From: Myxococcota bacterium
GTDB taxonomy: Bacteria > Myxococcota_A > Bradymonadia > UBA7976 > UBA1532
Assembly (NCBI GenBank): GCA_036337435.1
Contig: JAYZEG010000088.1
Span: 1-59,016 of the forward strand
Direction of reading: 5' to 3'
Length of the DNA: 59,016 nucleotides
The translations under genes and the position numbers were made by a program. A model generated the notes under the pieces. That model was not told the DNA's origin. It did not search any database and saw only the letters and a list, made by a program, of their open reading frames with translations. Each line of letters begins with the position of its first letter. Position 1 is the first letter of the stretch. Positions 22,029-42,358 of this stretch are shown in pieces.

Positions 22029-22033
22029 CCTAA

Positions 22034-23473: not shown

Positions 23474-23493
23474 TTGTTGGGGATGGTGGTGTC

Positions 23494-24555: not shown

Positions 24556-25859
24556 TGTCAAAACGCTTGTCAGATCGGCTCGCGCCCAAGGCTGCTCGGG
24601 CGGAGAAAAACGACGTCGGTGCCATCGCGACCATAATAAAGGGGAAAGTCATTGACCGAATTGACCATGCGGCCCTGAGTCAATTCGATGAGGCTGAAAA
24701 AAGAAAGCATCTTCGTACAGAGATCGAGCGGCTACTCGACCAGGGAGAATTCAAGCTCTCCAGTTACGAGCGTCAAGAAATTTGCCAAGCTGTCTTGGAC
24801 GAGATCCTCGGTCTCGGGCCCTTGGAGGCGTTGTTGGGTGATCCTGCGGTTTCAGACATCCTCGTAAACGGTCCAGACACCATCTATGTGGAGCGCCATG
24901 GCCGCCTGGAACGCGCCCATGTCCGATTTCGTGATGGACTCCATTTAGTCAACACAATTAGTCGGATCGCAGCCAAGGTGGGTAGACGTGTCGATGAATC
25001 GTCGCCAATCGTTGATGCGCGCCTTCCGGATGGCTCACGGGTAAACGCCATCATACCGCCATTGGCCTTAGATGGTGCGGCTTTATCCATTCGTCGTTTT
25101 GGCACCAAGGCTCTGTCGATCGACGACTTGGTGGGTTTTGGTGCCATGAATGACGACATGCGCAATTATCTCCGAGCCGCCGTGATCGCGAAGTGTAACA
25201 TTTTGGTGAGCGGTGGGACCGGTGCCGGGAAAACGACATTACTCAACGCATTGAGCAACTTTGTACCGGATGGGGAGCGCGTCATTACCCTTGAGGACTC
25301 GGCCGAACTCCAGCTCCAGGGTGCTCACACGGTTCGATTGGAAAGTCGACCGGCCAACATGGAGGGTCGGGGACAAATCACCATCGGCGATTTAATGAAA
25401 AATGCACTTCGCATGCGGCCCGACCGCATCATCGTCGGTGAGGTCCGCGGTGCTGAGGCTCTGGACATGTTACAAGCGATGAACACGGGTCATGAAGGCT
25501 CCATGGGAACTTTGCATGCCAACTCCCCAGATGATGCACTTCAACGATTGGTCACCATGATCACCATGGGCGGTGGGCAATTACCACCAAAGACATTGAA
25601 CCAAATTATTGGGCGGACTTTGCATGTGATCGTGCAGGCCGCACGTCTGCCCGATGGCAGCCGTCGAATCACCAGCATCATGGAGGTATTGGCTGTCGAA
25701 GATGGCGAGATTAAAACCCAAGAGGTCTTTATCTATGACCGGACAGGAATGGATGCCAATGGCCGTATCATCGGTGAGCATGCCTACATTTCAGAAAGTA
25801 CATTTCTCGATAAGTTTTACCGTGTAGGCGCATTGACGCCACCGAAAGAGGGATATTGA
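24555..25859 (+). CDS. cpaF: Tad motor ATPase CpaF/TadA
   Basis: GLGPLEALL, DILVNG, VDARLPDGSRVN, GGTGAGKTT, LEDSAEL, ALRMRPDRIIVGEVRG, AMNTGHEGS. No FHA domain. Confidence 0.96.
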   Translation: MSKRLSDRLAPKAARAEKNDVGAIATIIKGKVIDRIDHAALSQFDEAEKRKHLRTEIERLLDQGEFKLSSYERQEICQAVLDEILGLGPLEALLGDPAVSDILVNGPDTIYVERHGRLERAHVRFRDGLHLVNTISRIAAKVGRRVDESSPIVDARLPDGSRVNAIIPPLALDGAALSIRRFGTKALSIDDLVGFGAMNDDMRNYLRAAVIAKCNILVSGGTGAGKTTLLNALSNFVPDGERVITLEDSAELQLQGAHTVRLESRPANMEGRGQITIGDLMKNALRMRPDRIIVGEVRGAEALDMLQAMNTGHEGSMGTLHANSPDDALQRLVTMITMGGGQLPPKTLNQIIGRTLHVIVQAARLPDGSRRITSIMEVLAVEDGEIKTQEVFIYDRTGMDANGRIIGEHAYISESTFLDKFYRVGALTPPKEGY

Positions 25860-26785
25860 TGACGGCTGTTGTTGTCACCATAGGCCTTGCTGTTTTCTGC
25901 GTGTTGCAAGCGCTGTATTGGTTTGGTCGGGGCCGTTCGAGTGCCCGGGCCAATGCCCTTCTCGAACGCTTGGGTGGGGCGTCTTCTGTCCAGGATGTCA
26001 CCTTACTCAAACAGGTTGATGAATCTGGCTCATTGCGATCATCGATTCACGATATGCTTCGGCAGGCTGGAGAACCAGAACAGATTTTTCCCTTCCTTGT
26101 GAAAGTCATCAACTGGGCTCTCATCGGTGCTGTACTCGGTCTCGTTGCCGGTGGCTCACTGGTCGCCTTGAGTCTGGGTGCAATCATCGGCTGCATTTTG
26201 CCTCTCGTGCGATTGAACCAACGGCGCCGTCAACGTTTGGTTCAGATAGAGAAGAACCTACCTGAGGCCCTGCAAGTTTTGATCATCTCTTTGAAATCTG
26301 GTCATGCCATGCCCAAGGCCATCGCGACGACAGCCGACGAGATGTCTGGACCGTTGCGCAGCGAGCTTCAGATCCTGGCAGATGAACTTCGGCTTGGACG
26401 CAGTGTTGAAGTGGGTTTTCTTCGACTTGGCCAGAGATTAGAGCGATTGCAAACAGTGCGGACCTTTGTTGTTGCGGTCGTTGTTCTACAGCAGACAGGC
26501 GGCAATATGGTTGAAGTCCTCGAGCAGTTGGTTGAGGCCTTACACGAGCAATCTCAATACGCGCGAAAACTCGCTGCCATGACCGCCGAAGGTCGTATGA
26601 GTGCCCGCATACTCTGTGGCCTGCCTCCGGTGTTTCTAGGCCTGACTGCAATGGCCGCCCCTGATTACGTCGGCGGCCTCCTCAATGCGGGTGCCGGCAT
26701 CGCCATTCTTCTGGTCGCTATCACCCTGTATGTGAGCGGCGTTCTTTGGGTCCGTAAATTGGTTGACCCAGGGGGGGGCGTTTGA
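25859..26785 (+). CDS. tadB: Tad inner-membrane platform protein TadB (T2SSF family)
   Basis: LPEALQVLIISLKSGH, QQTGGNMVEVL, AMTAEGRMSA, C-terminal TM helices. Confidence 0.9.
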   Translation: MTAVVVTIGLAVFCVLQALYWFGRGRSSARANALLERLGGASSVQDVTLLKQVDESGSLRSSIHDMLRQAGEPEQIFPFLVKVINWALIGAVLGLVAGGSLVALSLGAIIGCILPLVRLNQRRRQRLVQIEKNLPEALQVLIISLKSGHAMPKAIATTADEMSGPLRSELQILADELRLGRSVEVGFLRLGQRLERLQTVRTFVVAVVVLQQTGGNMVEVLEQLVEALHEQSQYARKLAAMTAEGRMSARILCGLPPVFLGLTAMAAPDYVGGLLNAGAGIAILLVAITLYVSGVLWVRKLVDPGGGV

Positions 26786-27705
26786 TGTTTGATGCATGGA
26801 CCGAACAGACGACTATGGTCGCACTTGGCCTGGTGGCTGCGGCCTTGGTGATCTCCATTTCCTTAGCCGTTCAGCGTTGGCTCTACGCCTCCACTCTCAA
26901 AAAAGCCGAGCGCGCCGGCGATAATGAAAAGCTGAGCGAATTGATCGCGGCCTGGCAGCCGTCTGGAGGCCTATCGGGCATTTTCGCAGCGGCTTTTCGG
27001 CCACAGCCCGGGACATCAGATTTCAATGAACTCTCCCGATTGATGTTCTATGCGGGTCGACGTGGACGTGATGCCATGGACAAGTATCTCGCAAAGAGAG
27101 TCTACGTCCTTCTCGGTGGCGCGCTTTTCTGCGCGCTCCTGGTGCTTGTTTTCGGTCAAGCGGCAGCCATTCTGGTGCCGCTCATTTTGGGGGGCTCATT
27201 TCTCGCACCAAAAATGCTTTTACGAGCCGAAGCCCAGGGCCGCCAAGAGCGAATCGAACTCGCATTACCTACCGCTTTGGATCTTTTAGAAGCGTGTATC
27301 GAAGCCGGATTGGGTCTGGAGCAAGCCCTGAGCCGAGTGGCGGCTGAATTAGGCGGCAGCGCGCCAGATATTGCAGACGAACTCAGCGTTTTAGTCGGAG
27401 AGATTCGGGCGGGCCTACCCACGGCTGATGCATTCCGTAAATTGTCTGAGCGCGTCGAGGTGGATGAAGTCAAAACCATGTGTTCGATGATGATTCAATC
27501 GGCGAGTCTAGGTGCCCCTTTGTCGAAAACACTGAAGCAATATTCGGCGACATCTCGAAAGCGTCGGGGCTTGTTTTTAGAAGAACGGGCAGGGAAGGTC
27601 ACAGCAGCCATGACGTTGCCCCTGACCATTTGTCTCTTGCCTTCAGCACTGCTGATGGTCCTTGGCCCAGCCATTGTGGCTGTTTTGGAGTCATTTGGTG
27701 ATTAG
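26785..27705 (+). CDS. tadC: Tad inner-membrane platform protein TadC
   Basis: LPTALDLLEACIEAGLGLEQAL, QSASLGAPL, EERAGK, PLTICLLP...LGPA. Confidence 0.9.
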   Translation: MFDAWTEQTTMVALGLVAAALVISISLAVQRWLYASTLKKAERAGDNEKLSELIAAWQPSGGLSGIFAAAFRPQPGTSDFNELSRLMFYAGRRGRDAMDKYLAKRVYVLLGGALFCALLVLVFGQAAAILVPLILGGSFLAPKMLLRAEAQGRQERIELALPTALDLLEACIEAGLGLEQALSRVAAELGGSAPDIADELSVLVGEIRAGLPTADAFRKLSERVEVDEVKTMCSMMIQSASLGAPLSKTLKQYSATSRKRRGLFLEERAGKVTAAMTLPLTICLLPSALLMVLGPAIVAVLESFGD

Positions 27706-28480
27706 GTTGATTTCTGTATTGATGGTCTATTACTGCCTTGGATGCGGCGGTGGCCCGGACACTCGGTCCTCGTCAGGTGTACCAGAGGTGGGTCAATTAA
27801 CACCTGAGAAACGGACCAGTGTACGCCACTCTCTTATCAAAACACTTCTTGATAGCCATGCCTATGACAGCGCGGTTCCCTTGATTAATCAGGCCTTAAA
27901 AGACGTACCTAACGATGCCCGGCTGCACGGTTTTCGTGCCACAGTTCTCCGTGAGCGTGGCCGCTTAGAACAAGCCCTGTCGGTCTACACCCTTGCCTTG
28001 AAGTTCGATCCAAAGCTTGCGGAAGCGCATGCAGGACGGGGGATCGTTTTGAATCTTCTCGGTCAGCACGACAAGGCAACTCGAGCTCATCAGAGGGCGA
28101 CCAAACTGACGCCCGACCATAGTGCTCGACTCAACAATCTTGGATTTTCACTCTATTTGCAGAGGAATTACCAGGAGGCGGTGGATGCCTATGAAGCGGC
28201 CATTAAGGTTGATTCGCGTGCGCGGGTCACCTTCATAAATCTGGGATTTGCTCTCGCTGCATTGGGCCAGGAGGCGAAGGCTAAGCGTGCGTTCGGACAG
28301 GTTCTCGACGAAGCAGGGATTCTCAACAATCTTGCCTTGGCTCAAGAGCTTAAAGGCGACCCAAATGCGGCTCGGACACTATACAAGCAAGCCCTCATCA
28401 CTGACCCAAAGAATCAAGATGCTGCTCAGAACCTAGAGGCACTGGGCGCAGAATCTTCCGCTCAAAAGGAGACGAACTGA
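27698..28480 (+). CDS. tadD: TPR lipoprotein, TadD-like pilotin
   Basis: GGAG RBS before GTG 27698; lipobox CLGC; several TPR motifs (LNNLGFSL, FINLGFAL, LNNLALA). Confidence 0.78.
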   Translation: MIRLISVLMVYYCLGCGGGPDTRSSSGVPEVGQLTPEKRTSVRHSLIKTLLDSHAYDSAVPLINQALKDVPNDARLHGFRATVLRERGRLEQALSVYTLALKFDPKLAEAHAGRGIVLNLLGQHDKATRAHQRATKLTPDHSARLNNLGFSLYLQRNYQEAVDAYEAAIKVDSRARVTFINLGFALAALGQEAKAKRAFGQVLDEAGILNNLALAQELKGDPNAARTLYKQALITDPKNQDAAQNLEALGAESSAQKETN

Positions 28481-28785
28481 TGCAAAAAAACAAATTGATT
28501 TTACTCATCGGTGCGGCTGCAATGTTGCTTTTACCGGGTTGTGCGAGCCGAGACACGCTGGTTCCAGAGAGCGGGCGAGCTTATCGCATGCTCTTTGCCA
28601 TTCAGGCTCAAAAACGGTCGGCGATGAAGGTGGCCCCGCTGACTGCAACAGAGGCCAAGATCATTCTCGATGACTACGAAGGACTTGGGCAGGGTCGGCG
28701 CTCTCGGCGTGGGTCGACGCGCCGCTCGACCTCGTCACGGCCGCAGCAATCAGGTCGCTTAGGCCGAGTAAGGCGCATCGATTAA
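28480..28785 (+). CDS. Small Tad-associated lipoprotein with Arg-rich tail
   Basis: AAGGAG RBS; lipobox LPGC; GRAYRMLFAIQ motif; overlaps both neighbours. Confidence 0.65.
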   Translation: MQKNKLILLIGAAAMLLLPGCASRDTLVPESGRAYRMLFAIQAQKRSAMKVAPLTATEAKIILDDYEGLGQGRRSRRGSTRRSTSSRPQQSGRLGRVRRID

Positions 28786-30164
28786 TGGTGAGGCGCCTTC
28801 CTAAGTCCAATGGGCGCAGAATTAAAGCGGCTGAGCGCGGTTCTGTTGTGATCATCACGGTCGCTTGGACTGTGCTCGCCCTTTTTGTCCTTGGTGCAAT
28901 CGGCTATTTCCACGGTTTGGCATCCTTGGAACGGCTGCGGGCTCAGGTGCGCTCCGATGCGTTGGCCCTCGGGTCTGCGGAAGCGTTTCGGATGTATGGG
29001 CTCAATCACCGATGCGATATCGATTATGGAGGCGAGTTCATCAATGAACTCCACACCTTAAATGGGGGCGAGGGGTTGGCCCCCTGTCCTGTGGGCGAGC
29101 CAAAAAATGAAGACCGTTGGATGCTGTATGCATTTCAAGACAGTCAGGTCGGCCGGATAGAAGGGCAATTCGGGCAGTGGGGGGTCGATACTGAAATTAC
29201 CCGCCGCGGGCGTGCCATGAGGCTCTATGAGCTGGTCACCGATTACGATGATTTCTTTCCCATTTACCCGAATGTTGAGTTGGTCTTGGACTATTCGGCG
29301 TCCATGGAAGATCCCATGACAGACGGAAGTGATCGGACCCGGATTGAGCAATTGCGCACGGCACTCACAGAATTCTTGAGGCGAGCCCGCAATGTCAATG
29401 TTGGCTTGACGCTGTTTGCGACAGGAACGGTCGCCAGTCGGCGTATTCGAGAGCTGACGTTTAACCAAAGAGGCATTTTGACACGTGCTATCAATGAAAA
29501 CGACCCGCCCTTTGATGAGGTCAATGGGAAGACCAACTACGCTGAAGGCCTACGTGTGGCGAGAAATAAACTCATCGGTGAGCGATGGGGGGCGCGAATC
29601 ATTTTCTTTGTGTCCGATGGCAAGCCCACTGTGCCAAGCCCTGCAGAAGGGCCTCAGAGGGCGCGAAACATGGCTGATAATGTCAAACGTTCTGTTGATC
29701 AGATCTGGGGTTTGTACGTTGGCGACCGTGATGGCGAAGGCGTGATGAGATATATCGTGACCGATCCCAATCAGAACCTGCTGACCAATAATACACCAGA
29801 GGCCTATCAAGACTTTTTCCGGAATTTCGCCTTCGATTACGTATGTCGGCTGGAAATCCCCGTTGACCGCAGTTTGGACGGTGGTTTTCCCGCCGAGCGG
29901 ACAACGGCGTGGATTCGGCGGCGAAATGCGGTCGGTGGCCCAGGTATTCCGTTAGAATACGTGCCCAACCAAGACTTACTTTTTGAAGAAAATAACCAAG
30001 ATGTACACCTGAGGTTTCGATACACAATTTTCGTCCCCGATGGAGAAGACGAACTCTATGTCCACATCAGTCAGGGGGCATGCGAACAGCTCTTGGACAG
30101 GAACTACGAATTTGTCTTTAGAGCAGGCTATACCATGTTGGCTGCTCTCAATGCTGAACTCTAG
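28785..30164 (+). CDS. tadG: TadG-like pilus tip protein with vWA domain
   Basis: ERG/SVV pilin-like N-terminus plus TM helix; MIDAS elements LDYSASM, TNY, VSDG. Confidence 0.78.
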   Translation: MVRRLPKSNGRRIKAAERGSVVIITVAWTVLALFVLGAIGYFHGLASLERLRAQVRSDALALGSAEAFRMYGLNHRCDIDYGGEFINELHTLNGGEGLAPCPVGEPKNEDRWMLYAFQDSQVGRIEGQFGQWGVDTEITRRGRAMRLYELVTDYDDFFPIYPNVELVLDYSASMEDPMTDGSDRTRIEQLRTALTEFLRRARNVNVGLTLFATGTVASRRIRELTFNQRGILTRAINENDPPFDEVNGKTNYAEGLRVARNKLIGERWGARIIFFVSDGKPTVPSPAEGPQRARNMADNVKRSVDQIWGLYVGDRDGEGVMRYIVTDPNQNLLTNNTPEAYQDFFRNFAFDYVCRLEIPVDRSLDGGFPAERTTAWIRRRNAVGGPGIPLEYVPNQDLLFEENNQDVHLRFRYTIFVPDGEDELYVHISQGACEQLLDRNYEFVFRAGYTMLAALNAEL

Positions 30165-30191
30165 GGTCGCCCGTCGCCCGCATTCGCTTCA

Positions 30192-30665
30192 TTAAAGACT
30201 ATAGGAATAGCCGATATAACCGCGCTTTAAATAGCTGCAGTACGGCCGCAAGGTTTTGTTTTCGGTCGGCACGAACAGTGCTTCAAATCGGCAATAAGAC
30301 ACCCCGTTTTTGACCGTTTTTTTCGCCCCATCCGGACAGCTGTAAGCCGGTTTTTTTGGCCGCTTTTTGCTGACCCAAGAAAAACCCAGAACACCCTGAT
30401 CTAGCCCATCGCAGTCGGGTGTGACATCGGCCTTTGGGAGAGTGAGTTTTGTCTTAAGACAATAGATGGTTGTCTTGGATAAGCTTATGGCAAAGGCCTT
30501 CGGGCATCGCTGTGCAGCTAAGGTCTTCATAAACGCAGCGGGCGACGAGATTTCTGCCCATCCAAGCTTTGCTTGACTCGGACCAACCATGCAGCACGGG
30601 GCTATGAAAAACAGCATGAAAGCCAGACAACGCGACAGATTTTGAGTCGAATTGGGAGACCGCAT
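30192..30665 (-). CDS. Hypothetical secreted Cys-containing protein
   Basis: GAGGGG RBS; signal-like N-terminus; internal repeat G(V/Y)(L/I)G(F/Y)S(W/Y); upstream TTGCTC-16-TATAAT on the minus strand. Confidence 0.55.
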   Translation of the reverse strand: MRSPNSTQNLSRCLAFMLFFIAPCCMVGPSQAKLGWAEISSPAAFMKTLAAQRCPKAFAISLSKTTIYCLKTKLTLPKADVTPDCDGLDQGVLGFSWVSKKRPKKPAYSCPDGAKKTVKNGVSYCRFEALFVPTENKTLRPYCSYLKRGYIGYSYSL

Positions 30666-30836
30666 TTTTCCCCTCAGGCGAACTTAAATCACCGCATTAT
30701 AGCTAAATTGGGGACCGGAGCAATGGGGCTGTCAACGGCTTGGCTGGCAGCGAAACGCGATAGGTCTATTCGGCAGGCAGTCAAAGCTGAAGAAATCTGT
30801 TTGACAACAGGTCCGCAGAACGTATTTATCCAACCC

Positions 30837-31706
30837 ATGGACTCTCTGTGCAAAAATGACGACGCGTATTCGGTTGTGATCCCGACCTACAATCGTGTTC
30901 ATACACTCCGGCGAGCACTCGACTCGGTTTTTGCCCAGACCAGAGCAGCGCAGCGGGTGATCGTGGTCGATGATGGCTCAACAGATGAGTCCGCCACAAT
31001 GATGGAAACGCACTACCCGACGGTGACTTTGATCAGACAAGAGAATCAGGGTGTCAGTGCGGCTAGAAATCGTGGTCTTTCCATGGTTGATACACCGTGG
31101 ATTGCTTTCCTCGATTCAGATGACGAATGGCTCCCGCAAAAAATGGCTCGTCAATTCGCGGCACTCAATGAACAACCCCATTTTGCTTTCTGCCACACGG
31201 AAGAAATTTGGATCCGTAACGGCGTTCGCGTCAATCAGATGAAGAAACATCAGAAATCCGGCGGTGACGTCTTTCGGCGAAGCCTGCAATTGTGCTGCAT
31301 CTCCCCGTCAAGTGCACTGATTCACCGGCGGTTATTCGACGTCTATGGTTGCTTCGATGAAGGACTGCCCGCGTGCGAAGATTATGATCTCTGGCTTCGG
31401 ATATGTGCCCATGAACCGGTGTTGTTCATCGACCAACCCATGATCATAAAATATGGAGGCCATGACGACCAATTATCTCGCCTCCATTGGGGCATGGATC
31501 GCTTCCGGATTAAGGCTTTAGAGTCGCTTCTCGAAACCGGGCAACTGAACCCGGTCCAAACCCAGCAGACTCATCGGGTTCTCATGGCCAAGCTCAAGGT
31601 TTTGCTCAATGGGGCTCGCAAACGTGGTAATCAAGAGGTCTTAAGCCTATACGGTGAGAAACATACCTTATGGGACGGTTTTTTGGAGTCGATGGATGAA
31701 ATTTGA
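30837..31706 (+). CDS. Glycosyltransferase family 2
   Basis: VVIPTYNR, VVDDGSTD, NQGVSAARNRG, FLDSDD, EDYDLWLR; distinctive EEIWIRNGVRVN and KYGGHDDQLS motifs. Start placed at ATG 30837 because the longer track ORF overlaps the divergent gene. Confidence 0.9.
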   Translation: MDSLCKNDDAYSVVIPTYNRVHTLRRALDSVFAQTRAAQRVIVVDDGSTDESATMMETHYPTVTLIRQENQGVSAARNRGLSMVDTPWIAFLDSDDEWLPQKMARQFAALNEQPHFAFCHTEEIWIRNGVRVNQMKKHQKSGGDVFRRSLQLCCISPSSALIHRRLFDVYGCFDEGLPACEDYDLWLRICAHEPVLFIDQPMIIKYGGHDDQLSRLHWGMDRFRIKALESLLETGQLNPVQTQQTHRVLMAKLKVLLNGARKRGNQEVLSLYGEKHTLWDGFLESMDEI

Positions 31707-32535
31707 ACCGCGTCTCGTTTGGTTAGTTGCCCTGCCCGCAGAGGCGCGTCCCCTGTGTCAATTGTTCGGTCTTGCTCCATCCCGGCATCCGTCGCCTTTT
31801 CCAACTTTTTTCTCGGCCAGCGGGCGTGAGCTGCTTGTGGTCAGCGGGCTCGGTCGCAATCTGGGGGCTGCTGCCGCGATGCATGCCTACCATGAATTGG
31901 GTGGGGGCGCTCATATCGCTTGGCTGAATGTGGGCATTGCCGGGCATGCCAGTCACCCCATCGGTTCGGCTTGGATGGTTAATCAAATCATCGAGTACAG
32001 CAGCGGTGCCCGGTATTATCCGCAGTCGGTCATCAGACATCCCTTTCAGTCGAACAATTTGACGACGGTTGATGTGCCACAAGAAACAATGGTCGACACC
32101 TCCCTCTACGATATGGAAGCCTCCAGCTTCTTCCAAATCGCGAGTCGGCTATCGTCCAGTGAACTGGTGTCCGTCGTTAAAATCGTATCGGACCATGGCG
32201 TGGATAAATCGTCTTTTCCATCTCGGAAGCAAGTCGGTCGCTGGATAGAAAACCATGGGGCAAGCTTACGCCAGTTGGCGGATTCAATGCTTGTTCTCTC
32301 AGGAGAAGAAGCACAACGCATTGAGCCCGTCGAACTCGATCTCGACGGGATCAATCTTCACTTTACCGTCGCACAACAGCACCAGTTGAAAACCATTTGT
32401 CGCCGCTGGAATGCCCTCGGGCTTCCGGGCTCCCCGCTGGGTACGGTAAATACATATTCGACGGCATCAGACGCGCTGACAGGCCTTCGTCGTCTGGTTG
32501 ATAATGAGGTTATCGATTGGACTCAAAATGAGTAA
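31696..32535 (+). CDS. Nucleoside phosphorylase / MTA-SAH nucleosidase-like protein (PNP_UDP_1 fold)
   Basis: VALPAEA, VSGLG, LNVGIAG, DMEASSF, KIVSD. Confidence 0.8.
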   Translation: MKFEPRLVWLVALPAEARPLCQLFGLAPSRHPSPFPTFFSASGRELLVVSGLGRNLGAAAAMHAYHELGGGAHIAWLNVGIAGHASHPIGSAWMVNQIIEYSSGARYYPQSVIRHPFQSNNLTTVDVPQETMVDTSLYDMEASSFFQIASRLSSSELVSVVKIVSDHGVDKSSFPSRKQVGRWIENHGASLRQLADSMLVLSGEEAQRIEPVELDLDGINLHFTVAQQHQLKTICRRWNALGLPGSPLGTVNTYSTASDALTGLRRLVDNEVIDWTQNE

Positions 32536-33529
32536 GCGAATCTATGTCGAACGCAGCGTAGCCGACCATCCCCGCACCCGTGCCGTGCTCAAACGATATC
32601 CGCGGGCATCCATCATTGAAATCGAGCGGTACGGCGAAGTGTTCAATCGGCGAAATCAAAATTTTCGATTACAGAAAAAACAGCCAGCCCTGATCTTGGC
32701 CGACAAGTTTTCCTCACGAGTCTTGCCCACACCGCCTGGCTACGGAATCGGAGGCGAGAACAACTTTTACTTCTCCCACCTTCTCAATTGTGTCTACGAC
32801 TGCCGTTACTGTTTCTTGCAGGGCATGTATCGGTCGGCCAATTATGTTTTATTCGTCAATTACGAGGATTTTTTCGACGACATTGAGGCGCAGTTGGCGC
32901 GTTTGCCAGACCAGGACCACTATTTTTTCTCCGGCTACGATTGCGATTCACTAGCCATGGAGTCTCTCACAGGCTTTGTAGAGGCTGCTCTGCCCTTTTT
33001 TAGGGCAAGACCAAGGGCATGGCTTGAGTTGAGGACTAAAAGCGTTCAAACCCGGCCGCTCGTCGATTCAGCTCCGTTTAAAAACTGTGTTGTCGCGTAC
33101 AGTTTGACACCCGATACGGTGGCACAGGCTGTTGAACATAAGGCCCCAACCGTGAAACGTCGTATCGATGCAATGGCTCAGTTGGCCCAGCAAGGCTGGT
33201 CCATCGGGCTGCGTTTCGATCCGTTAATTTACGGGGCCAATTGGATGGACAATTATCGGCGGCTTTTCGATGCGGTCTTTACAGCTGTACCACGAAATCG
33301 GATTCATAGCGTAAGCTACGGTCCATTGCGGTTTCCGAAGAAAATGTACAAAGATATCGTAAGCTTATATCCAGATGAAGCCTTGTTTTCTGGTGCGATG
33401 CACCTTCAGAATGGTATGGTGGCGTACCCTGACGGAATCGAGTCTGACATGGCTGCATACTGTTCAGACCAGTTGCGTGCCTATCTGGATGATTCCATCT
33501 TTTTTCAATGTTTACCCGAGGTGCGATGA
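32528..33529 (+). CDS. Spore photoproduct lyase-like radical SAM protein
   Basis: NCVYDCRYCFLQ (CxxxCxxC), FVN, GYDCDSL, ELRTKS, SLTP, E...P....RI, RFDPLI, G.LRF. Confidence 0.85.
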   Translation: MSKRIYVERSVADHPRTRAVLKRYPRASIIEIERYGEVFNRRNQNFRLQKKQPALILADKFSSRVLPTPPGYGIGGENNFYFSHLLNCVYDCRYCFLQGMYRSANYVLFVNYEDFFDDIEAQLARLPDQDHYFFSGYDCDSLAMESLTGFVEAALPFFRARPRAWLELRTKSVQTRPLVDSAPFKNCVVAYSLTPDTVAQAVEHKAPTVKRRIDAMAQLAQQGWSIGLRFDPLIYGANWMDNYRRLFDAVFTAVPRNRIHSVSYGPLRFPKKMYKDIVSLYPDEALFSGAMHLQNGMVAYPDGIESDMAAYCSDQLRAYLDDSIFFQCLPEVR

Positions 33530-34230
33530 GTCGACAGCGAACCATCCTAGTGACCGGCAGCTCCAGCGGAATTGGGGAGGCCATCGTAGGCAGGCTGCTC
33601 GCTGATGGTCACCGTGTCATCGGCGTGGCGAGACGAGTTCAGGTGCATGATCCCGAGCATGCCTTTAAGGGCGTTTCCATCGATCTCTCTGCCATCGATG
33701 ACCTGCCCCGTCGACTCGCGCGAGTCGTCAAGGATAACCCGTCTATCGATGGTGTGATCAGCTGCGCCGGTGCTGGTCTTTTCGAGCCTTTGGAGTCTGT
33801 TTCGGCAGACCAAGTGAATGCGTTTTTCCGCTTAAATCTCTTAGCTCATGTCCACTTGGCGAGAGTATGCCTACCTCATCTTAAAAAAATTGGATTAGGT
33901 GACTTCATTTTCATGGGGTCAGAATCGGCTCTCAGGGGAGCTAAGAAAGGCGCGCTTTACTGCACGGCGAAATTTGGTCTGAGGGGGCTCGCTCAGTCTT
34001 TGAGGGCTGAGTGTAGCTCGAAAAACGTGCGGGTCTCGCTGATCAACCCAGGCGTTGTGCGCAGCCCATTCTTCGAGCAGCAACGATTTCGGCCTGGCCC
34101 AGCATCGGAGCATGCCATTGAGCCAAGCGATGTCGCTGATGTGGTCTCATCTATTCTGACTATGCGACCCGGCACGGTGATCGATGAGGTCAACTTAACA
34201 CCGCTCAAACACGTCTTGGAGTTTGACTAG
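33526..34230 (+). CDS. SDR family oxidoreductase
   Basis: VTGSSSGIG, CAG, catalytic S and YCTAK, INPG; ATGA overlap with the radical SAM gene. Confidence 0.92.
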   Translation: MSRQRTILVTGSSSGIGEAIVGRLLADGHRVIGVARRVQVHDPEHAFKGVSIDLSAIDDLPRRLARVVKDNPSIDGVISCAGAGLFEPLESVSADQVNAFFRLNLLAHVHLARVCLPHLKKIGLGDFIFMGSESALRGAKKGALYCTAKFGLRGLAQSLRAECSSKNVRVSLINPGVVRSPFFEQQRFRPGPASEHAIEPSDVADVVSSILTMRPGTVIDEVNLTPLKHVLEFD

Positions 34231-34387
34231 TCGATTCCAAACCGGTCGGACTTTCGCCTCTCGTTTTTCAATCCATATCCCGCGATTGCACTCGCTGCAG
34301 ACCGCGACGAGGTCGATTCCGCACCGGCCAAATAGACGGCCCTCGTTTTCCAATCCATGTCCCGGGATTTGCCTCGCCGCAGACCGC
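34230..34387 (+). repeat. Degenerate non-coding tandem repeat, 82-bp period, 2 copies
   Basis: 34230-34305 and 34312-34387 align without gaps at 58/76 positions by manual count. Confidence 0.8.
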
Positions 34388-34434
34388 CAGATCATAGTAC
34401 CGTAGTGCGGTGAGACAAAATCGCGGGAGACAAA

Positions 34435-37400
34435 GTGATCAGGTTTTCATTTCACGCCGGTCAATCCGAGCAGTTCTGCGCTTATTTAAGCCTATTTTTG
34501 ATTGCCATCTGCTGTGGCTGCGGGAGCGAGACGGCGTCTACGTCTGAACCTGATGCGATGACGCCGGACGTCGCGATCAGCGCTGAATGTGGAAACGGTC
34601 AGGTCGAAGGTGATGAAGAGTGCGATGATGGCAACTCGGTTGAGACAGACGCTTGCTTGAATAACTGTCTCCGAGCGCGCTGTGGTGATGGCATCGTCCA
34701 TGCCGACAATGAACTTTGCGACGATGGCAATCAGAACGATGGCGATGAATGTAGAAATAATTGTTCGCCTGCCAGTTGCGGTGACGGTGTCGTGCAAGTG
34801 GGGGTAGAAGAGTGTGATGACGGCAATCAATCGGACACGGATTCGTGCCTTCCGACCTGTGTCGCCGCGCGCTGTGGAGATGGCATCGTCCACATCGGAA
34901 CGGAAGATTGCGATGATGCCAACGATGTCAATGAGGACGAGTGTAAGAACGATTGTCGCGCAGCGCGGTGCGGAGACGGCGTTGTACAAGACGGTGTCGA
35001 AGCGTGTGATGATGGCAACAACTTGATGACCGATGGGTGCTTAAACAACTGCGTCCTTGCTCAATGTGGCGATGGAATTGTCCATGTCGGCGTCGAGGAC
35101 TGTGATGATGGAAATACGGACGAGACAGATGGCTGTTTGACGGGATGTCAAGCCGCGCGATGCGGTGATGGTATCGTCCATGAGGGCACCGAAGAATGCG
35201 ATGATGGTAACAATGAAAATGCTGACGATTGCCTCAATAATTGTCGGTTTGCCCAGTGTGGTGATGGCGTAATTCAAATCGGTATAGAGGATTGTGATGA
35301 TGGAAATGACGATGATTCAGATGCGTGTCCGTCAACCTGTACCCAAGCATACTGTGGTGACGGCTTCGTTCGAGAGGGGCGTGAGGAATGCGACGACGGA
35401 AACGGCATAGAGACCGATGATTGTCCGTCCACCTGTCAGGTTGCGCGGTGTGGAGATGGACTCCTGTGGGCCGGTGTCGAGGACTGTGATGATGCCAACG
35501 ATATTGACACGGATGCATGCCGCTCAAACTGTCAAGCGGCCAGGTGCGGCGATGGCATAATCCACGCTGGGTTCGAGGTTTGTGACGATGCCAACGACTT
35601 CAACGGTGACGCGTGTACCAACGAGTGCGAGTCGGCAACCTGCGGCGATGGGTATGTGTTCGTCGATGTTGAAGAATGCGATGATGGCAACGCGGTTGAA
35701 ACCGACTTATGTCGAACCGATTGCTCCCTCGGCGTTTGCGGTGATGGCGTGGTTATCCAGGGGGTAGAAGAGTGTGATGACGGCAACGTGGACGATTCCG
35801 ATGATTGTTTAAATAGTTGCGAGGCCGCCCGTTGCGGCGACGGAATCATACGCGTCGGCGTGGAAGAATGTGACGATCAAAACCGTCGAGACGATGATGG
35901 GTGCCGGAATACCTGCGAGCGTGCCCGCTGCGGTGACGGCATTATCCGAGTCGATGTTGCCCCTGACGATCCACGATTCGAGGAATGTGACGATGGCAAT
36001 GGAGTCGATACGGACGCCTGCTTGAACACGTGTCGGTCTGCTGCTTGTGGTGATGGTGTCATCCGTGCAGGCCGAGAAGAATGCGATGATGGCAATCTAT
36101 CGAACACCGACAGTTGCTCGAATCGCTGTCGATCAGCCTATTGCGGCGATGGGATTCTGCGGACCGATCTTGAGCCGACGGATGAACTGTATGAAGCCTG
36201 CGATGATGGTAATTTGGAGAATGATGATGCTTGCCTTGTGAATTGCCAAGTCAGTCGGTGCGGTGATGGTTTCGTCAATTTGGAGACCGAGGAATGCGAC
36301 GATGAAAACCTAGATGATAACGATCCTTGCTTAAGCACGTGTGTTGTAAACGTCTGTGGTGATGGATTCGTACGTCCAGATCAAGAAAGTTGCGATGACG
36401 GCAACGACATAGAAACCGACGCTTGTTTGAGCACCTGTGTCGTCGCATCTTGTGGCGATGGATTTATTCAGGACGGGGTCGAGGCATGCGACGATAATAA
36501 TCGAAATGACGACGATGGCTGTTTGAACACCTGTACCCTGGCCCGTTGCGGTGATGGCGTTCGACGAACTGACGTCGATTCTGATAATCCCGATTTTGAA
36601 GCTTGTGATGATGGAAATGACATTGAGCAGGATGGGTGTAAGACCGATTGCCAAGTGGCCACCTGTGGCGACGGGGTTGTGCGTGCGGATTTGCCCTTTG
36701 AATCGCCAGACTTTGAAGAGTGCGACGACGGCAATGATAACGATAATGATGGGTGCAAACGAGATTGCTCGTCTAATGTCTGTGGTGACGGTTTTGTGTA
36801 CCTAGGTATCGAAGATTGCGACGATGGCAATGAAATTGATACCGACAGCTGTTTGACGGGCTGCATCAACGCTCAGTGTGGTGATAACATCGTCCAATTT
36901 GGTGCAGAAGATTGCGATGACGGCAACTTGGATGACGGTGACGATTGCCTGAGTGGGTGCCGATTTCCTCATTGCGGTGATGGGTATCTCCGACGAGGCG
37001 TCGAAGACTGCGATGATGGCGACGTCGATAACACCGATGAATGTGTCGAGGGTTGCCGCACGGCAGCGTGCGGAGATGGGTTTGTCTACGACGGGGTTGA
37101 GGAATGCGATGATGGCAACAATATCAACACCGACAGTTGCCTGAGTGACTGTACGAACGCGGTGTGTGGAGATGGAATTATCCACGCTGGTGTTGAAGAC
37201 TGTGACGATGGCAATCTCACCGATGGTGATGGGTGTGAGTCCAATTGTACAACCTGTGCAGCAATGGGGTTCGATGGAACCGGGCAACACGTCTCAATTC
37301 GTCGCCCGGACAATATTTTCTACTTTGAGTCCGTCACTGTCGAGGCATGGATTCGTTGGGACGGGCGTGCTTTGCCTCATCCATGGTCCGTTGTTGCCGG

Positions 37401-39717
37401 CCATGGAGCCGCTCAACGTGTTTTTCGCTTGCAGATCAAAACTGAGACAGGCCAGGTGTTCTTCGATGTTCACCAGGATGGACAGGGCCCTCGCGCGGTG
37501 ATCCAACCGAATGAATGGACTCATGTTGCCGGCGTCAACAACGGGCAAACACTCACGCTTTACGTGAACGGTGTCCCAGTCGATACGAAGGCAGGGGGCG
37601 GACTCGGACATGCATTCGCCGTCCGTAATTTTGGCCTGGGTGCTGTGCCTGGTTCGACTGATACGACCGCTTTTTCCGGGGACTTGAGGCACGTCCGCAT
37701 TTCCCACAATGTCCAGTATAATGACCCCTTCATACCCCAATGGCGGTTGGATACAAACGCTGACACAATCGGGTTTTGGCCGCTTCGCATTGTCGAAAAT
37801 GGGCTTGCACTCAATTCGGTTGATGCACTCCATCATGGGGACGTAATCGGAGCATCTGTCAACGTCATTGACTGTCAAACGGGTCTCTGTGGCAATGGTC
37901 AGGTCGAATTAGCTGAGCAATGTGATGATGGCAACATAGATGGGGCTGATGGCTGTTCTGAACAGTGCCAGACAGTCTGTGCATCTCGCGATTTCAACGG
38001 GTCGGACAGCCTGTGGATCGAGCAGAGTCTGAACTCGGTTTTAGCCCCAGAAAATCGGAGCTTTACCCTCGAAGGGTGGGTCAGGCAGAGGACGGCAAAT
38101 CAAAATGTCGGCCGGACTAGTCTCGGTGTGTCCTGCGGGCCCCGAGTTGACCTGGCTGATGACGATCGAGTTCGATTGCATGTCGGTCAACAAAGTTGCT
38201 CCGGTGAGTCCGTTGTCATGCCTGGTCAATGGCATCACATCGCCATATCGATGACTGCACAAGCTCCTCTCACAGTATCTCTGATGGTTGATGGACGCTC
38301 ACAATGCCGTATTGTCGCGCCAAACCTTGACGCCACAGCGCATCTCGATGGTCAGGTTCTCATCGGCACCGCGGCAGACCAATGTCTCTTGGTTGACGGG
38401 GACCAGCTCGGTGACCAGGGTTGGATCGGCCAAGTCGGCCCAGTGCGTCTGTCTAATGGGCTCATTTACGATGGCGATTTCACCCCTGACGGCTGGCTCG
38501 AGCGCACAGAAACGACGGTTTTCCTGTCCAATCACCTGTATCCAAAGAGTGACGATAGAATACGCGATGAGGGGCCCTTGTCATTGGCGGCGGTGATCAG
38601 TGATCTGACGCGCCAATATGAGGGGCCTGGTTGTGGGCAATGCGGAGATGGCATTCGGCAATTAGACGAGGAGTGCGACGATGGTAATCGAGACCAGAAC
38701 GATGGCTGCACCAATTCGTGCAATGTTGCCGTTTGTGGGGATGGATTGGTGTTCGCGGGTACAGAACAATGTGATGATGGCAATCGAAACGGTGGAGACG
38801 GTTGTGAACCGGGCTGCACGCGGACAGCGAGCTTTTGGGATTTCCCCTTTGTCCATGACGAACCATCGCGGCGCGCCAACCACGCGATGGCCTATGACCC
38901 GGCGACTCGAGACGTCGTCGTTTTCGGCGGCACCACCGGCGCTGATTGTGGGACGAATCCGACCCTGGGAGATCTGTGGCGGTGGAATGGTTTCGACTGG
39001 ATTCGCATACAACTGGCGGACGGCCCGAGTCCGAGGGAAGGGGCACAAATGGCGGCCGATCCCACTCGAGGTGGCCTCTTGTTATACGGAGGCTGGGATC
39101 GATGCGGCAATGGAGGCCTGACTTATTTCACTGATACGTGGCATTGGGATGGCGCGAGCTGGACTCGGATAAATACCCAAGAACATCCCGGTCAACGGAC
39201 TCATTTTGCGATGATCGATGACGTTGAGACTGGCTCGATTTATGTCTATGGCGGTGCTGCCGAAGGCCGGTCTCAAATGTATCGGTGGACAGGGGTTAAT
39301 TGGACTGAAATGGCTGAGTTTCAGCAACCCGGAGATGTACAATCTCCTCAACTTGAACGCCATCCGCTGACAGGCGACATCCTGCTGATGGATGAACTGG
39401 CCCAACTGTGGCAGCTGACCGACGCCCGTTGGGAAATGATCAATAGCCCCGATGGCCCACAAGGTCGTCTAGGCGGGTCACTTGTATCTGATGTTCGACG
39501 TGGGGAACTGATGTTGTTGGGGGGTATCCAAGGTGACGTCTATGTTGACGACTCATGGTACTGGAATGGTCTGCAATGGGCGCGAGACAATATCCAAGCG
39601 GGCGTTGGCCAACGGCACTTACATCGAATGGCATACGACGTCAGTCAGGGGCATATTATTGTGTTTGGTGGCTATACCGATCAGGGGGTTGCCGCAGGCA
39701 CTATGCTGAGGCGCTAG
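34435..39717 (+). CDS. Giant lipoprotein with Myxococcus cysteine-rich (DUF4215-type) repeats, two LamG-like domains and a C-terminal Kelch-like propeller
   Basis: Lipobox-like CCGC; 30 CG(D/N)G...E.CDD.N...D.C...C repeats (27 in tandem); LamG motifs [17 protein letters not shown]; Kelch-like HAMAYD...VFGG, DTWHWDG. Confidence 0.85.
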
Positions 39718-39746: not shown

Positions 39747-40622
39747 TTAGATTGCTGTTCGCAGGCTCCAAAGTTCAGGGAAAAACTTGAGACTGAGTGC
39801 TTTGGACAAGTAGCCAACGCCAGACGTGCCCCCGGTGCCCCGCTTGAAACCAATGACCCGTTTTACAGTGGTCATGTGCCTGAATCGCCACTGTTGGAAA
39901 TTATCTTCAACGTCGACGAGTTTTTCGGCGAGAGCGTAAAGGTCCCAATGCCGATCTGTATCTTGGTAAATGGTCAACCATGCGTCATGAACGGACGCAT
40001 TTTCCTCGTAAGGCAGAGACCAATCGCGTTCCACGTAGTCGCTCTGAATCTCAAAGCCGCGGCGACTTAAAAGTCGAATACATTCGTCATATAAGCTTGG
40101 CTCATTGAGACACGTCCGGACACGGGTATAGATGTCAGGATCGTGTCGATGTACTTCGATCATTGCGGCATTTTTATTTCCAAGAATGAACTCGATCATC
40201 CGGTACTGATAGGACTGAAAACCCGACGAGTGTCCCAGTGCATCACGAAAGGCGACGTAATCCGCCGGTGTCATGGTCGACAAAACATCCCAAGCTTGCT
40301 TGAGCTGATTTTGAACTTTCGATACCCGTGACAGCATTTTGAAGGCGGGTGAAAGGTCGTCTGACTTGACGAGCTCTCTTGCAGCGTGGAGTTCGTGCAG
40401 GACCAGCTTCATCCATAACTCTGAGACTTGGTGAATAATCAGAAAGAGGGCTTCATCATGGTGTCCGGAGAGTTGCCGTTGTGCCGACAAGACTTTTTCG
40501 AGCCCAAGATAATCGGCGTAGCTCATCTCCTGGCGAAAGTCCCATTGAACCTTCTCATCTTTTAAGTCGACCTGATTCTTCGGCGTTGTAGACTTACTTT
40601 TCCCTGTATCTCCCTTGGTCAC
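39747..40622 (-). CDS. kynA: Tryptophan 2,3-dioxygenase
   Basis: [54 protein letters not shown] overlap with the upstream gene; the track start is 40637. Confidence 0.96.
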
Positions 40623-42357: not shown

Positions 42358-42358
42358 C

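Follow-up and report, generated by a model that had tools for sequence, protein, structure and literature searches.

HpnG and MqnB are dedicated MTAN/PNP paralogues that stand next to a radical SAM enzyme and process the adenosylated adduct. The order HpnH, HpnG, BHT and HpnI is given for hopanoid side-chain synthesis in one study (PMC13459092), and this system combines a radical SAM enzyme with an adenine remover of the PNP/MTAN superfamily and a GT2 enzyme, the ribosyl aldehyde being reduced in between. In the second system, the radical adenosylase MqnE is followed by the MTAN-family hydrolase MqnB. A different radical SAM scaffold is found in the spore photoproduct lyase (SPL) SplB from Geobacillus thermodenitrificans (4FHC and related structures). 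Here, according to PMC3467042, Cys140 is the H-atom donor, Tyr98 takes part in the radical relay, and Lys174, Ser195, Arg273 and Tyr96 have roles in SAM binding. SplB-like radical SAM enzymes also occur in DNA-repair operons with DUF4130, UDG or ImuB-C, outside spore formers too, as stated in PMC3765255.

Here, an operon was analysed in the window, the whole stretch of 59,016 nucleotides from a Myxococcota bacterium. According to the window sequence and the ORF list, four genes on the plus strand, termed GT2, NUC, rSAM and SDR, follow one another in that order:

30192-30665, minus strand: divergent ORF of 157 aa, flanking 30666-30836
30666-30836, no strand: intergenic region upstream of the operon, separating it from the divergent ORF
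30837-31706, plus strand: GT2, GT2-family (GT-A) glycosyltransferase of 289 aa (ATG 30837, TGA 31704-31706)
31696-32535, plus strand: NUC, predicted MTAN-type nucleosidase of 279 aa (ATG 31696, TAA 32533-32535)
32528-33529, plus strand: rSAM, predicted SPL-fold radical SAM enzyme of 333 aa (ATG 32528, TGA 33527-33529)
33526-34230, plus strand: SDR, classical short-chain dehydrogenase/reductase of 234 aa (ATG 33526, stop 34228-34230)

The overlaps of 11 nt between GT2 and NUC, 8 nt between NUC and rSAM and 4 nt (ATGA) between rSAM and SDR, which the initial annotation had described, are borne out by the sequence and the ORF list. Its claim of a Gram-negative-type host agrees with a secretin and a Tad/Flp pilus locus in the window and with Myxococcota MAGs as the nearest relatives. 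In the intergenic region 30666-30836, Rfam gave no match at the gathering score or at E<=1 and a consensus scan gave no sigma-70-like site, and no regulatory element was identified by these two scans. A full-text literature search found no assigned product or substrate for the cluster, in line with its earlier description as uncharacterised. Since the same order recurs across phyla, the four genes are linked beyond chance; they are a real, widespread and uncharacterised system.

The linkage was followed in 80 loci, with up to 7 kb examined on each side. The complete set of four is found in 19 of the 80 loci, from about nine phylum-level groups, and the four-gene state occurs in both halves of the rSAM tree, so the linkage is conserved across phyla. 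Of the assessable loci, 61 of 73 have SDR directly downstream of rSAM and 32 of 72 have NUC directly upstream; GT2, which is not universal, lies no more than 2 kb upstream in 22 of 70. Within the 7 kb on each side, rSAM and SDR occur without NUC or GT2 in 40 of the 80 loci, almost all from Methylococcaceae, and SDR is absent from the neighbourhood in 8 loci retaining NUC. The absence of NUC traces essentially to one loss at the base of the Methylococcaceae and one Acidobacteriota locus. None of the 22 GT2-bearing loci lacks NUC, an association without statistical weight since NUC changes its state just twice on the rSAM tree (sign test, p = 1).

From 928 ORFs in the 80 loci, 26 recurrent neighbour families were annotated. 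The initial annotation had proposed a check for co-occurrence with GT2, SDR, nucleosidase and folE/queD-type genes; the first three were recovered at the frequencies given above, and no folE/queD-type gene was seen among the 26 families. Some loci additionally carry a HAD phosphatase, a PfkB sugar kinase, a dual-specificity phosphatase (between GT2 and NUC) or a sodium:solute symporter, each in 2 to 5 loci only and several on the opposite strand. The rSAM family itself comprises 739 representative clusters matching at E<=1e-30, and its carriers include marine and freshwater SAR116, Marinimicrobia, methanotroph relatives, Myxococcota, Planctomycetota and Acidobacteriota.

The rSAM protein matches the SPL family PF20903 in Pfam (1e-19, 71.1 bits against a gathering score of 27 bits). 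In NCBIfam it stays below the cut-offs of the SPL equivalog TIGR04070 (83.7 bits vs 400) and of the SPL family protein model TIGR03886 (74.8 bits vs 437.55), and the models of the Rv2578c family and of TatD-linked radical SAM enzymes are matched at 15-16 bits only. The structural comparison to SplB that had been proposed revealed a shared SPL fold over the whole length at 16% identity (Foldseek against 4fhc: 7e-18, TMq 0.79, 345 columns), for a model with low confidence at residues 36-50 and 97-102. The next fold family is PFL-AE (3.6e-5), and distant matches are AprD4 (6fd2, E 1e-3) and MqnE (6xi9, E 1.7e-4, TMq 0.44), the latter listed among the fold matches as 'in complex with aminofutalosine'.

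The CX3CX2C cluster motif is present at C88/C92/C95. In the translation, CVYDCRYCFLQ covers residues 88-98 and FFSGYDCD residues 133-140, and the exchanges of Tyr to Phe and of the donor Cys to Tyr, which the initial annotation had seen in these motifs by eye, are confirmed by a HMMER alignment, here made and numbered against the solved chains of SPL from G. thermodenitrificans and not B. subtilis. CHYCYLQ of SPL aligns with CRYCFLQ, placing Phe96 at Tyr98, and FEAACTSD aligns with FFSGYDCD, placing Tyr137 at Cys140 (Cys141 in B. subtilis), with the invariant Cys139 two residues further on; the H-donor Cys140 and the relay Tyr98 are both replaced in rSAM. The SAM-binding residues of SPL are kept (Lys174 as K171, Ser195 as S192, Arg273 as R268 and also Tyr96 as Y94), with K171 and S192 invariant in the family alignment. 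In contrast, at the positions of Arg193 and Glu268, which bind thymine O4 in SPL, rSAM has the invariant Ala190 and Gly265; Tyr339 falls beyond the aligned range. Furthermore, the hosts of rSAM belong to non-sporulating Gram-negative lineages, and a nucleosidase is coupled or fused to it.

Between phyla, members of the subfamily are 55-63% identical with about 95 invariant columns. Judged by its sequence, rSAM thus represents a distinct, highly conserved subfamily of SPL-fold radical SAM enzymes, atypical as first claimed, and the label spore photoproduct lyase or DNA photolyase is probably wrong for it. A beta-hairpin is retained in the model at residues 292-299, and together with many invariant polar residues it would also fit a nucleic-acid substrate. 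Residues 36-54 form a very highly conserved basic/polar loop, which is probably flexible.

For NUC, the sole Pfam match is PF01048 at a sub-threshold 18.2 bits (gathering score 25.1), and in NCBIfam the lone match is the PRK05634 nucleosidase (15.8 bits vs 129), the equivalog models of HpnG and MqnB not being matched. A profile of 19 NUC orthologues, however, matches MTA/SAH nucleosidases in the PDB (5.5e-7, 1zos). In the structural model (pLDDT 91.5), the nucleosidase core is N-terminal and is followed by a C-terminal helical extension of some 100 aa (approximately residues 177-279). Its top Foldseek match is the futalosine hydrolase/MTAN of H. pylori (4bmz_B, 1.3e-12), and the best folds also include Chlamydia CT263, which is 21% identical. 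Residues E16, G51, G53, N78, G80, G83, E141, S165 and D166 are invariant in the family alignment, and the MTAN catalytic positions E16, E141 and D166 are retained in 19 of 19 orthologues. We take E16 to be the catalytic Glu, E141 the ribose-binding Glu of the ME motif and D166 the purine-protonating Asp of the SD motif. At positions matching these residues, PDB titles cite Glu12Gln, D198N and D161N mutants. Fold and catalytic residues place NUC among the MTA/SAH nucleosidases of the PNP_UDP_1 superfamily, and it can be regarded as an MTAN-type, presumably adenine-releasing nucleosidase.

With the housekeeping MTA/SAH nucleosidase MtnN/Pfs, NUC shares the fold, the N-terminal Glu and the SGxGK, NxGxAG, (D)ME(A) and SD motifs. 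It differs by an identity of 12-21%, by the extra C-terminal domain, which is predicted to contact rSAM, and by its frequent fusion to rSAM. The extension also distinguishes NUC from MqnB.

Fusions were surveyed in the best 150 of 2760 representative proteins, 28 of which are at least 400 aa long. In 25 of these 28, a match to the NUC profile lies N-terminal to the rSAM domain (18 at E<=1e-15), which indicates NUC-rSAM fusion in no fewer than 18 representative clusters. The NUC catalytic residues are kept in most fusions (E16 in 20 of 22, E141 and D166 in 18 of 22 each), and the fusion P0241 is 31% identical to NUC of the window over the full length. Complex prediction for rSAM and NUC resulted in an ipSAE of 0.86 in three runs against 0.00 for the best control, and passes a mark that 116 of 157 solved complexes attain, compared with 2 of 215 mismatched pairs; this score is the model's own confidence and not a measurement. 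At least 93% of the contacts are shared between the runs, with a partner pLDDT of at least 88, and the predicted interface consists of the invariant rSAM loop 37-54 and the C-terminal extension of NUC. rSAM therefore appears to work in complex with NUC, and the tie between both proteins claimed initially is stronger than first seen. A search of the open-access literature did not reveal any earlier description of such a fusion or docking between a radical SAM enzyme and an MTAN-type nucleosidase.

GT2 matches PF00535 (1.3e-33) and contains the DxD motif D93-S94-D95-D96; across 16 sequences, this DSDD motif reaches at least 95% conservation, as do many other residues. Its orthologues are 57-65% identical across phyla, and their length of 273-293 aa supports the start at ATG 30837. 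All named GT2 equivalogs in NCBIfam, including WcaA, stay under their cut-offs (best 90 bits vs 423; MftF 82.4 vs 280; TIGR04283 arsenosugar GT 59.3 vs 182). SDR matches PF00106 (2.2e-34) and contains the classical motifs TGxxxGIG, conforming to TGxxxGxG, and Y145xxxK149 (YxxxK) as well as Arg36 after strand 2. In 53 sequences, conservation is at least 95% for T10, G11, G15-G17, R36 and K149 and at least 70% for Y145. No specific equivalog reaches its cut-off in NCBIfam, where, as in the PDB, the matches are to generic SDRs. SDR is probably an NADPH-dependent carbonyl reductase, the cofactor preference and direction being suggested by the motif.

The four genes quite likely constitute a conserved cytosolic four-enzyme pathway that does not serve spore-photoproduct repair, with the complex of rSAM and a dedicated adenine-releasing MTAN-type NUC as its core, together with an NADPH-type SDR and a soluble GT2. 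For the chemistry, we infer all steps of a tentative order of radical adenosylation, adenine removal, carbonyl reduction and glycosylation. Here, rSAM would reductively cleave SAM, and the 5'-deoxyadenosyl radical, rather than abstracting hydrogen, would add to an sp2 carbon of a polar substrate, the product radical being quenched by an invariant Cys (C139 or C328). The docked NUC would then hydrolyse adenine off the adenosyl adduct and expose a ribosyl hemiacetal, whose open-chain aldehyde SDR may reduce to a polyol chain, and GT2 would glycosylate the product. This would be the same logic as that of HpnH, HpnG, reduction and HpnI and of MqnE/MqnB, on an unrelated SPL scaffold; a nucleosidase, a reductase and a GT2 enzyme are the set that this logic requires.

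The many invariant polar residues of rSAM, whose scaffold is unlike that of HpnH, argue against a lipid as in the hopanoid pathway. The HpnG, HpnH and HpnI models gave no match to the operon proteins at E<=0.01, HpnB alone being hit by GT2 with 19 bits vs 379, and the annotated window region shows no squalene-hopene cyclase context. MqnE is a distant fold match only, no menaquinone genes were seen nearby, and SDR and GT2 are without counterpart in the MqnE/MqnB pathway. One may speculate that rSAM is an independent radical adenosylase in obligate complex or fusion with NUC, which with SDR and GT2 would graft SAM-derived ribose onto a polar unsaturated metabolite, resulting in a so far unknown glycosylated, C5-polyol-extended compound in aquatic bacteria of many phyla. 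To our knowledge, the sole characterised SPL-family enzyme abstracts hydrogen, which counts against adenosylation. The tightest pair is rSAM-SDR and not rSAM-NUC, and with the 40 of 80 loci lacking NUC this would fit NUC as a dispensable accessory. Radical addition and H-abstraction are not distinguished by the present data.

The main rival, a possible but doubtful one, is H-abstraction. Here, the substrate of rSAM would be a sugar, a nucleotide-sugar or a polar metabolite of similar kind, and the enzyme would be of the lyase or diol-dehydratase type; SDR would reduce the resulting carbonyl for a net deoxygenation or rearrangement, the docked NUC would scavenge inhibitory 5'-deoxyadenosine, and GT2 would use or decorate the product. 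A precedent for a radical step followed by reduction, with net deoxygenation, is AprD4/AprD3, and AprD4 is among the distant fold matches of rSAM. The predominance of the rSAM-SDR pair, which persists alone in half of the loci, is in line with this, and fusion or docking of NUC is equally compatible with a direct hand-off of 5'-deoxyadenosine. Loss of Tyr98 and of the aligned Cys140 suggests that SAM is consumed and not regenerated, so that 5'-deoxyadenosine would need disposal. However, a 5'-deoxyadenosine nucleosidase that is dedicated or fused to a radical SAM enzyme is not known to us from any characterised case; this task normally falls to housekeeping enzymes. H-abstraction also leaves unexplained why the NUC-contacting loop 37-54 is invariant in Methylococcaceae without an adjacent NUC, and it gives no reason for the constant, if statistically weak, company of GT2 and NUC. 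In its favour, SPL itself abstracts hydrogen, as PMC3467042 describes.

In an improbable alternative, the substrate is a nucleoside or nucleotide; its sugar or base would be remodelled by rSAM and SDR and, once modified, freed by NUC, and kinases, phosphatases and GT2 would process it further. The SPL scaffold binds nucleosides (PMC3467042), R268 aligns with the phosphate-binding Arg273, NUC is by residues and fold an intact purine nucleosidase, and the phosphatases, sugar kinase and symporter of some loci would fit; these genes, however, are confined to few loci and partly to the opposite strand, and the thymine-contacting residues of SPL are lost in rSAM.

Repair or modification of a flipped-out DNA or RNA base by rSAM, with only loosely related neighbours, is very unlikely, since despite the SPL fold with its hairpin, the basic/polar loop 36-54, the source annotations of rSAM relatives ('DNA photolyase', 'spore photoproduct lyase family') and the repair operons with other SplB-like branches (PMC3765255), rSAM falls under both curated SPL cut-offs, differs from SPL at the donor Cys position as well as at Tyr98, Arg193 and Glu268, and is linked to metabolic-type enzymes by translational coupling and fusion; the loop is predicted to contact NUC instead, no DNA-repair gene, including DUF4130, UDG and ImuB-C, was seen in the window neighbourhood or the 26 annotated recurrent families, rSAM sharing with the other SplB-like branches the superfamily but not the gene context, and, as a weak argument, the family pI of 5.5 to 9.0 is not consistently basic.

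New in this system are the NUC-rSAM fusions that retain catalytic residues and the predicted NUC-rSAM complex. Thousands of such proteins are labelled in databases 'DNA photolyase' or 'spore photoproduct lyase', a label that is probably wrong for the rSAM subfamily. The system points to either a fourth independent origin of radical adenosylation or the first built-in system for removal of 5'-deoxyadenosine. Since the rSAM family is large, strongly conserved and present in abundant aquatic lineages, its product is likely to be physiologically important.

The four genes at 30837–34230 form a translationally coupled operon; the overlaps of 11, 8 and 4 nt claimed in the initial annotation are borne out by the start codons read in the sequence. 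The operon stands on its own.

Features of the operon and its immediate surroundings
19656–30164, + strand: complete-looking Tad/Flp pilus locus by domain annotation, directly upstream of the operon
30837–31706, + strand: GT2, putative glycosyltransferase, 289 aa (Pfam PF00535, 1.3e-33)
31696–32535, + strand: NUC, putative MTAN-type nucleosidase, 279 aa (Pfam PF01048 sub-threshold, 18.2 bits vs 25.1)
32528–33529, + strand: rSAM, putative radical SAM enzyme of the spore photoproduct lyase (SPL) fold, 333 aa (Pfam PF20903, SPL, 1e-19)
33526–34230, + strand: SDR, putative reductase, 234 aa (Pfam PF00106, 2.2e-34)
34435–39717, + strand: 1760-aa protein with many DUF4215 Cys-rich repeats, LamG and Kelch, downstream of the operon

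The Tad/Flp locus, which seems unrelated to the operon, contains an A24 prepilin peptidase, TadE, RcpC/CpaB, a secretin, a ParA-like ATPase and a T2SSE ATPase as well as two T2SSF proteins (TadB/C), a TPR protein and a VWA protein. On the other side, the stretch 39747–46188, mostly on the − strand with one ORF on the + strand, encodes a tryptophan 2,3-dioxygenase, an enoyl-CoA hydratase, two alpha/beta hydrolases, a GMC oxidoreductase and a 339-aa protein without annotation. This may be a catabolic cluster and has no link to the operon. A giant 2234-aa ORF is located at 46279–52983 (− strand).

Directly after the SDR stop, a 76-nt element occurs twice in tandem at 34230–34387 (+); the copies have a spacing of 82 nt and an identity of 76%. 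The 23-nt core of the element is found only at these two sites in the window (chance expectation 0), and the tandem element has no Rfam match; it could be a 3' element of the transcript or an intergenic repeat. Rfam gave zero matches at gathering score for the whole window and zero at E ≤ 1 for 30000–34600, and a promoter/terminator scan revealed nothing beyond the shuffle expectation (2 promoter-like sites vs 3.1 expected).

The structure of rSAM was modeled from 16 family members (mean pLDDT 80, pTM 0.83, low confidence at residues 36–50 and 97–102). The model matches the SPL of G. thermodenitrificans (4fhc) over its whole length, with an E-value of 7e-18, a TMq of 0.79 and 16% identity over 345 columns, and the next fold family, the PFL-activating enzyme, follows only at 3.6e-5. 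A search of the protein atlas returned 'SPL family' clusters only. The scores against the NCBIfam models TIGR04070 (SPL; 83.7 bits, cut-off 400) and TIGR03886 (SPL family; 74.8 bits, cut-off 437.55) are, however, far below the cut-offs. On sequence grounds, rSAM is assigned to the Pfam SPL superfamily, outside both curated SPL families.

Residues were mapped by a HMMER alignment to PDB chains, in which the chain index is the enzyme number plus 27, and the roles in SPL (SAM binding, the H-atom donor Cys140, thymine O4 binders) are those described in the portion of Benjdia et al. (2012; PMC3467042) used here. According to these roles, the SAM-binding residues are kept (Lys174 as K171, Ser195 as S192, Arg273 as R268, Tyr96 as Y94), whereas residues for repair of the spore photoproduct (SP) are replaced, namely Tyr98 by F96 and Cys140 by Y137. 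The initial annotation had noticed these two motif changes, including a later Cys, and both are correct in the alignment: an invariant Cys139 lies two residues past the Cys140 position. The exchange of the thymine O4 binders Arg193 by A190 and Glu268 by G265 adds changes in the substrate pocket. SPL Tyr339 falls beyond the aligned range; near the C-terminus, F326 and C328 are invariant in the rSAM family. An identity as a genuine SPL was rejected on the sub-cut-off scores together with the replaced SP-specific residues. Furthermore, the gene context of rSAM is unlike that of the SplB-like enzymes of DNA-repair operons, as far as these are covered by the relevant part of PMC3765255.

By sequence comparison, the rSAM family is large and unusually conserved. 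A word-indexed search yielded 5301 relatives at E ≤ 0.001 among 8000 candidates scored, and the best 120 of them display 55–89% identity over 94–100% of the query; the nearest are from Myxococcales MAGs (89%). When representatives clustered at 50% identity were searched exhaustively with a profile, 2760 matched at E ≤ 0.001, of which 1934 reached 1e-10 and 739 reached 1e-30. In an alignment of 16 sequences spanning Myxococcota, Planctomycetota, Acidobacteriota and Proteobacteria, identity averages 66% per column; about 95 columns do not vary, and many of these hold polar or charged residues. The pI of the family ranges from 5.5 to 9.0.

For NUC, a profile of 19 orthologues matches MTA/SAH nucleosidases in the PDB (best 1zos, 5.5e-7). 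The NUC model (pLDDT 91.5) matches many MTANs, including the futalosine hydrolase/MTAN of H. pylori (4bmz_B, 1.3e-12, TMt 0.68); Chlamydia CT263 is closest in sequence (21%). Invariant in all 19 orthologues are E16, G51, G53, W76, N78, G80, G83, E141 (in DMEA) and S165-D166. We take E16, E141 and D166 to be the catalytic Glu, the ribose-binding Glu and the purine-protonating Asp of MTANs, respectively; mutant names in PDB titles (Glu12Gln, D198N, D161N) agree with this assignment. The best MTAN fold matches cover only about 235–240 columns of the 279-residue model, whose C-terminal part (about residue 177 to 279) is a helical extension. NUC is thus predicted to be a true MTAN-type, adenine-type nucleosidase with intact catalytic residues and an extra domain.

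GT2, a putative soluble GT-A glycosyltransferase, retains the DxD motif and shows 57–65% identity across phyla (closest organism-named match a Bradymonadia MAG, 65%). In the public protein set it is present as P0121, with 327 aa and a start further upstream (30573–31706). The ATG at 30837 is the more probable start, since the orthologues have 273–293 aa and align from about residue 10 of the 289-aa form onward. SDR carries the NADP-type Arg after strand 2 and the YxxxK pair. A 491-aa homolog, P0280, contains an rSAM domain at 81–399 followed by a match to positions 1–40 of the SDR profile at 441–477; this arrangement could reflect a fusion of rSAM to SDR, read-through or a truncated gene call.

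A scan of species-representative genomes confirmed at least 595 rSAM relatives, and the best 80 were taken as loci. Because of this selection, half of which is Methylococcaceae, the raw linkage proportions are biased. Adjacency was counted by tblastn with thresholds in loci with enough flank: SDR lies directly downstream of rSAM in 61/73 assessable loci, NUC directly upstream in 32/72, and GT2 within 2 kb upstream in 22/70.

Gene arrangement in the 63 loci assessable on both sides
All four genes in the order of the window: 13/63
GT2-NUC-rSAM without downstream SDR: 8/63
NUC-rSAM-SDR: 6/63
rSAM-SDR only: 32/63
NUC-rSAM only: 3/63
rSAM alone: 1/63

Gene presence in all 80 loci including truncated ones (family HMMs on six-frame translations)
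All four genes: 19/80
NUC, rSAM and SDR: 10/80
NUC and rSAM: 5/80
GT2, NUC and rSAM: 3/80
rSAM and SDR: 40/80
rSAM only: 3/80

The linkage of all four genes is therefore conserved across phyla (19/80 loci), in line with the coupling proposed initially. In five of these 19 loci (L019, L063, L068, L075 and L078), SDR is divergent and located upstream of GT2. By record title, the carriers include Myxococcales, Bdellovibrionales, several Alphaproteobacteria (SAR116, Rhodospirillaceae, Nisaea), Gammaproteobacteria, Acidobacteriota, Marinimicrobia, Planctomycetota, Opitutaceae/Pelagisphaera and Omnitrophica. In a maximum-likelihood tree of 81 rSAM sequences, which has several long end branches and 26 of 78 inner branches unsupported, the four-gene state is present in both halves. 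Apart from one Acidobacteriota locus, the sequences with rSAM and SDR only make up essentially a single clade, of 41 Methylococcaceae rows. Methylobacter tundripaludum (locus L038) is a carrier of this rSAM-SDR form. At minimum, NUC changes state twice on this tree, GT2 five times and SDR four times. None of the 22 GT2 loci lacks NUC, an association without statistical weight because NUC changes state only twice (sign test with two independent NUC changes, p = 1); as a clue to the pathway order it was dropped for this reason.

Annotation of 26 recurrent neighbor families, out of 928 ORFs, revealed that the other neighbors of the operon are lineage-specific. In Methylococcaceae the upstream neighbors run on the opposite strand and have housekeeping roles (proC-, yggT- and argB-like by eye, first seven clusters). 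Five gammaproteobacterial loci also carry a HAD hydrolase, a CxxCxxCC protein and a PfkB sugar kinase. In two other gammaproteobacterial loci, L019 and L075, a gene like those of dual-specificity phosphatases is inserted after GT2 and before NUC, and a sodium:solute symporter gene follows rSAM (about 5665–6144 and 7983–9416). As extra conserved pathway genes the HAD, PfkB, phosphatase and symporter genes were rejected, each being present in only two to five loci; as neighbors they hint at an intermediate that is phosphorylated or imported.

Recurrent fusion and a passing complex prediction argue that NUC is tied to rSAM as one unit. A search for longer relatives revealed P0241, a 657-aa protein whose N-terminal part is 31% identical to NUC of the window over the full length including the extension, and whose C-terminal part is 49% identical to rSAM. 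Among the 150 best representatives of the exhaustive search, 28 have at least 400 aa, and 25 of these contain a match to the NUC profile N-terminal to the rSAM domain (18 at E ≤ 1e-15, seven weak ones at 7e-10 to 5e-4); those without are P0280, P0284 and P0375. In 22 fusions aligned to the NUC profile, E16 is kept in 20, and E141 and D166 in 18 each, the four fusions lacking the latter two having short or divergent N-terminal parts. These fusions were identified in protein sequences.

The complex prediction for rSAM and NUC, using our family alignments A1 and A2, gave an ipSAE of 0.86 in each of three runs (best control 0.00), which supports binding of the two proteins to each other. Of 157 solved complexes, 116 score this high, as do 2 of 215 mismatched pairs; these counts are only a rough guide here because our own alignments were used. 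The three runs share at least 93% of contacts, and the partner pLDDT is at least 88. We know of no solved complex of this kind, so that a structure memorized by the predictor is an unlikely source of the pass. The predicted interface includes the invariant low-pLDDT loop 37–54 and segments 195–201, 235–242 and 279–290 of rSAM, and on the NUC side residues 150–157 (with the invariant E156) and parts of the C-terminal extension (201–211, 236–242, 268–278). The loop 36–54 (window 32633–32689) is invariant also in Methylobacter proteins without adjacent NUC; either these genomes encode NUC at another site or the loop serves a second function.

Mechanistically, the loss of Tyr98 and Cys140 at the aligned positions suggests that SAM is consumed and not regenerated by rSAM. 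In this case, its adenosine part would become 5'-deoxyadenosine or part of the product, and NUC would take the adenine off. As a route we tentatively prefer radical adenosylation followed by adenine removal, reduction and glycosylation. Here, the 5'-deoxyadenosyl radical would add to a polar substrate at an sp2 carbon and an invariant Cys would quench the radical so formed; NUC would then cleave adenine from the adduct, SDR would reduce the ribosyl aldehyde and GT2 would glycosylate the product. This preference is based on the characterized dedicated MTAN/PNP paralogs that process the adenosyl adduct of a radical SAM enzyme, namely HpnG acting after HpnH and, following MqnE, either MqnB or the MTAN of H. 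pylori. It is also based on the set of nucleosidase, reductase and GT2, which echoes the hopanoid side-chain logic as outlined in part of PMC13459092.

Alternatively, rSAM might abstract a hydrogen atom, after which the carbonyl would be reduced, with AprD4/AprD3 as a precedent, and NUC would act as a docked scavenger of 5'-deoxyadenosine. This possibility, only slightly less probable than adenosylation, is favored by rSAM-SDR being the primary pair. A route with a nucleoside as substrate appears unlikely, and repair or modification of nucleic acids by rSAM, with its SP-specific residues replaced, is quite improbable.

With respect to known systems, identities as hopanoid Hpn, futalosine Mqn, mycofactocin MftF or arsenosugar GT proteins were rejected, being below the NCBIfam cut-offs or absent. 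ArsS is a further precedent that was considered. On RadicalSAM.org, according to the part of PMC9477430 concerned, SPL is listed only as subgroup Megacluster-5-3. In the open-access full-text literature, neither a paper on the operon nor an already assigned product was found, and the open-access literature yielded neither an SPL-like enzyme with these partners nor a pairing of PNP_UDP_1 with radical SAM; a function published in subscription journals or bioRxiv supplements could have escaped notice. Within this frame, we rate the enzyme families as already known, and their conserved combination and the nucleosidase-rSAM unit as new.
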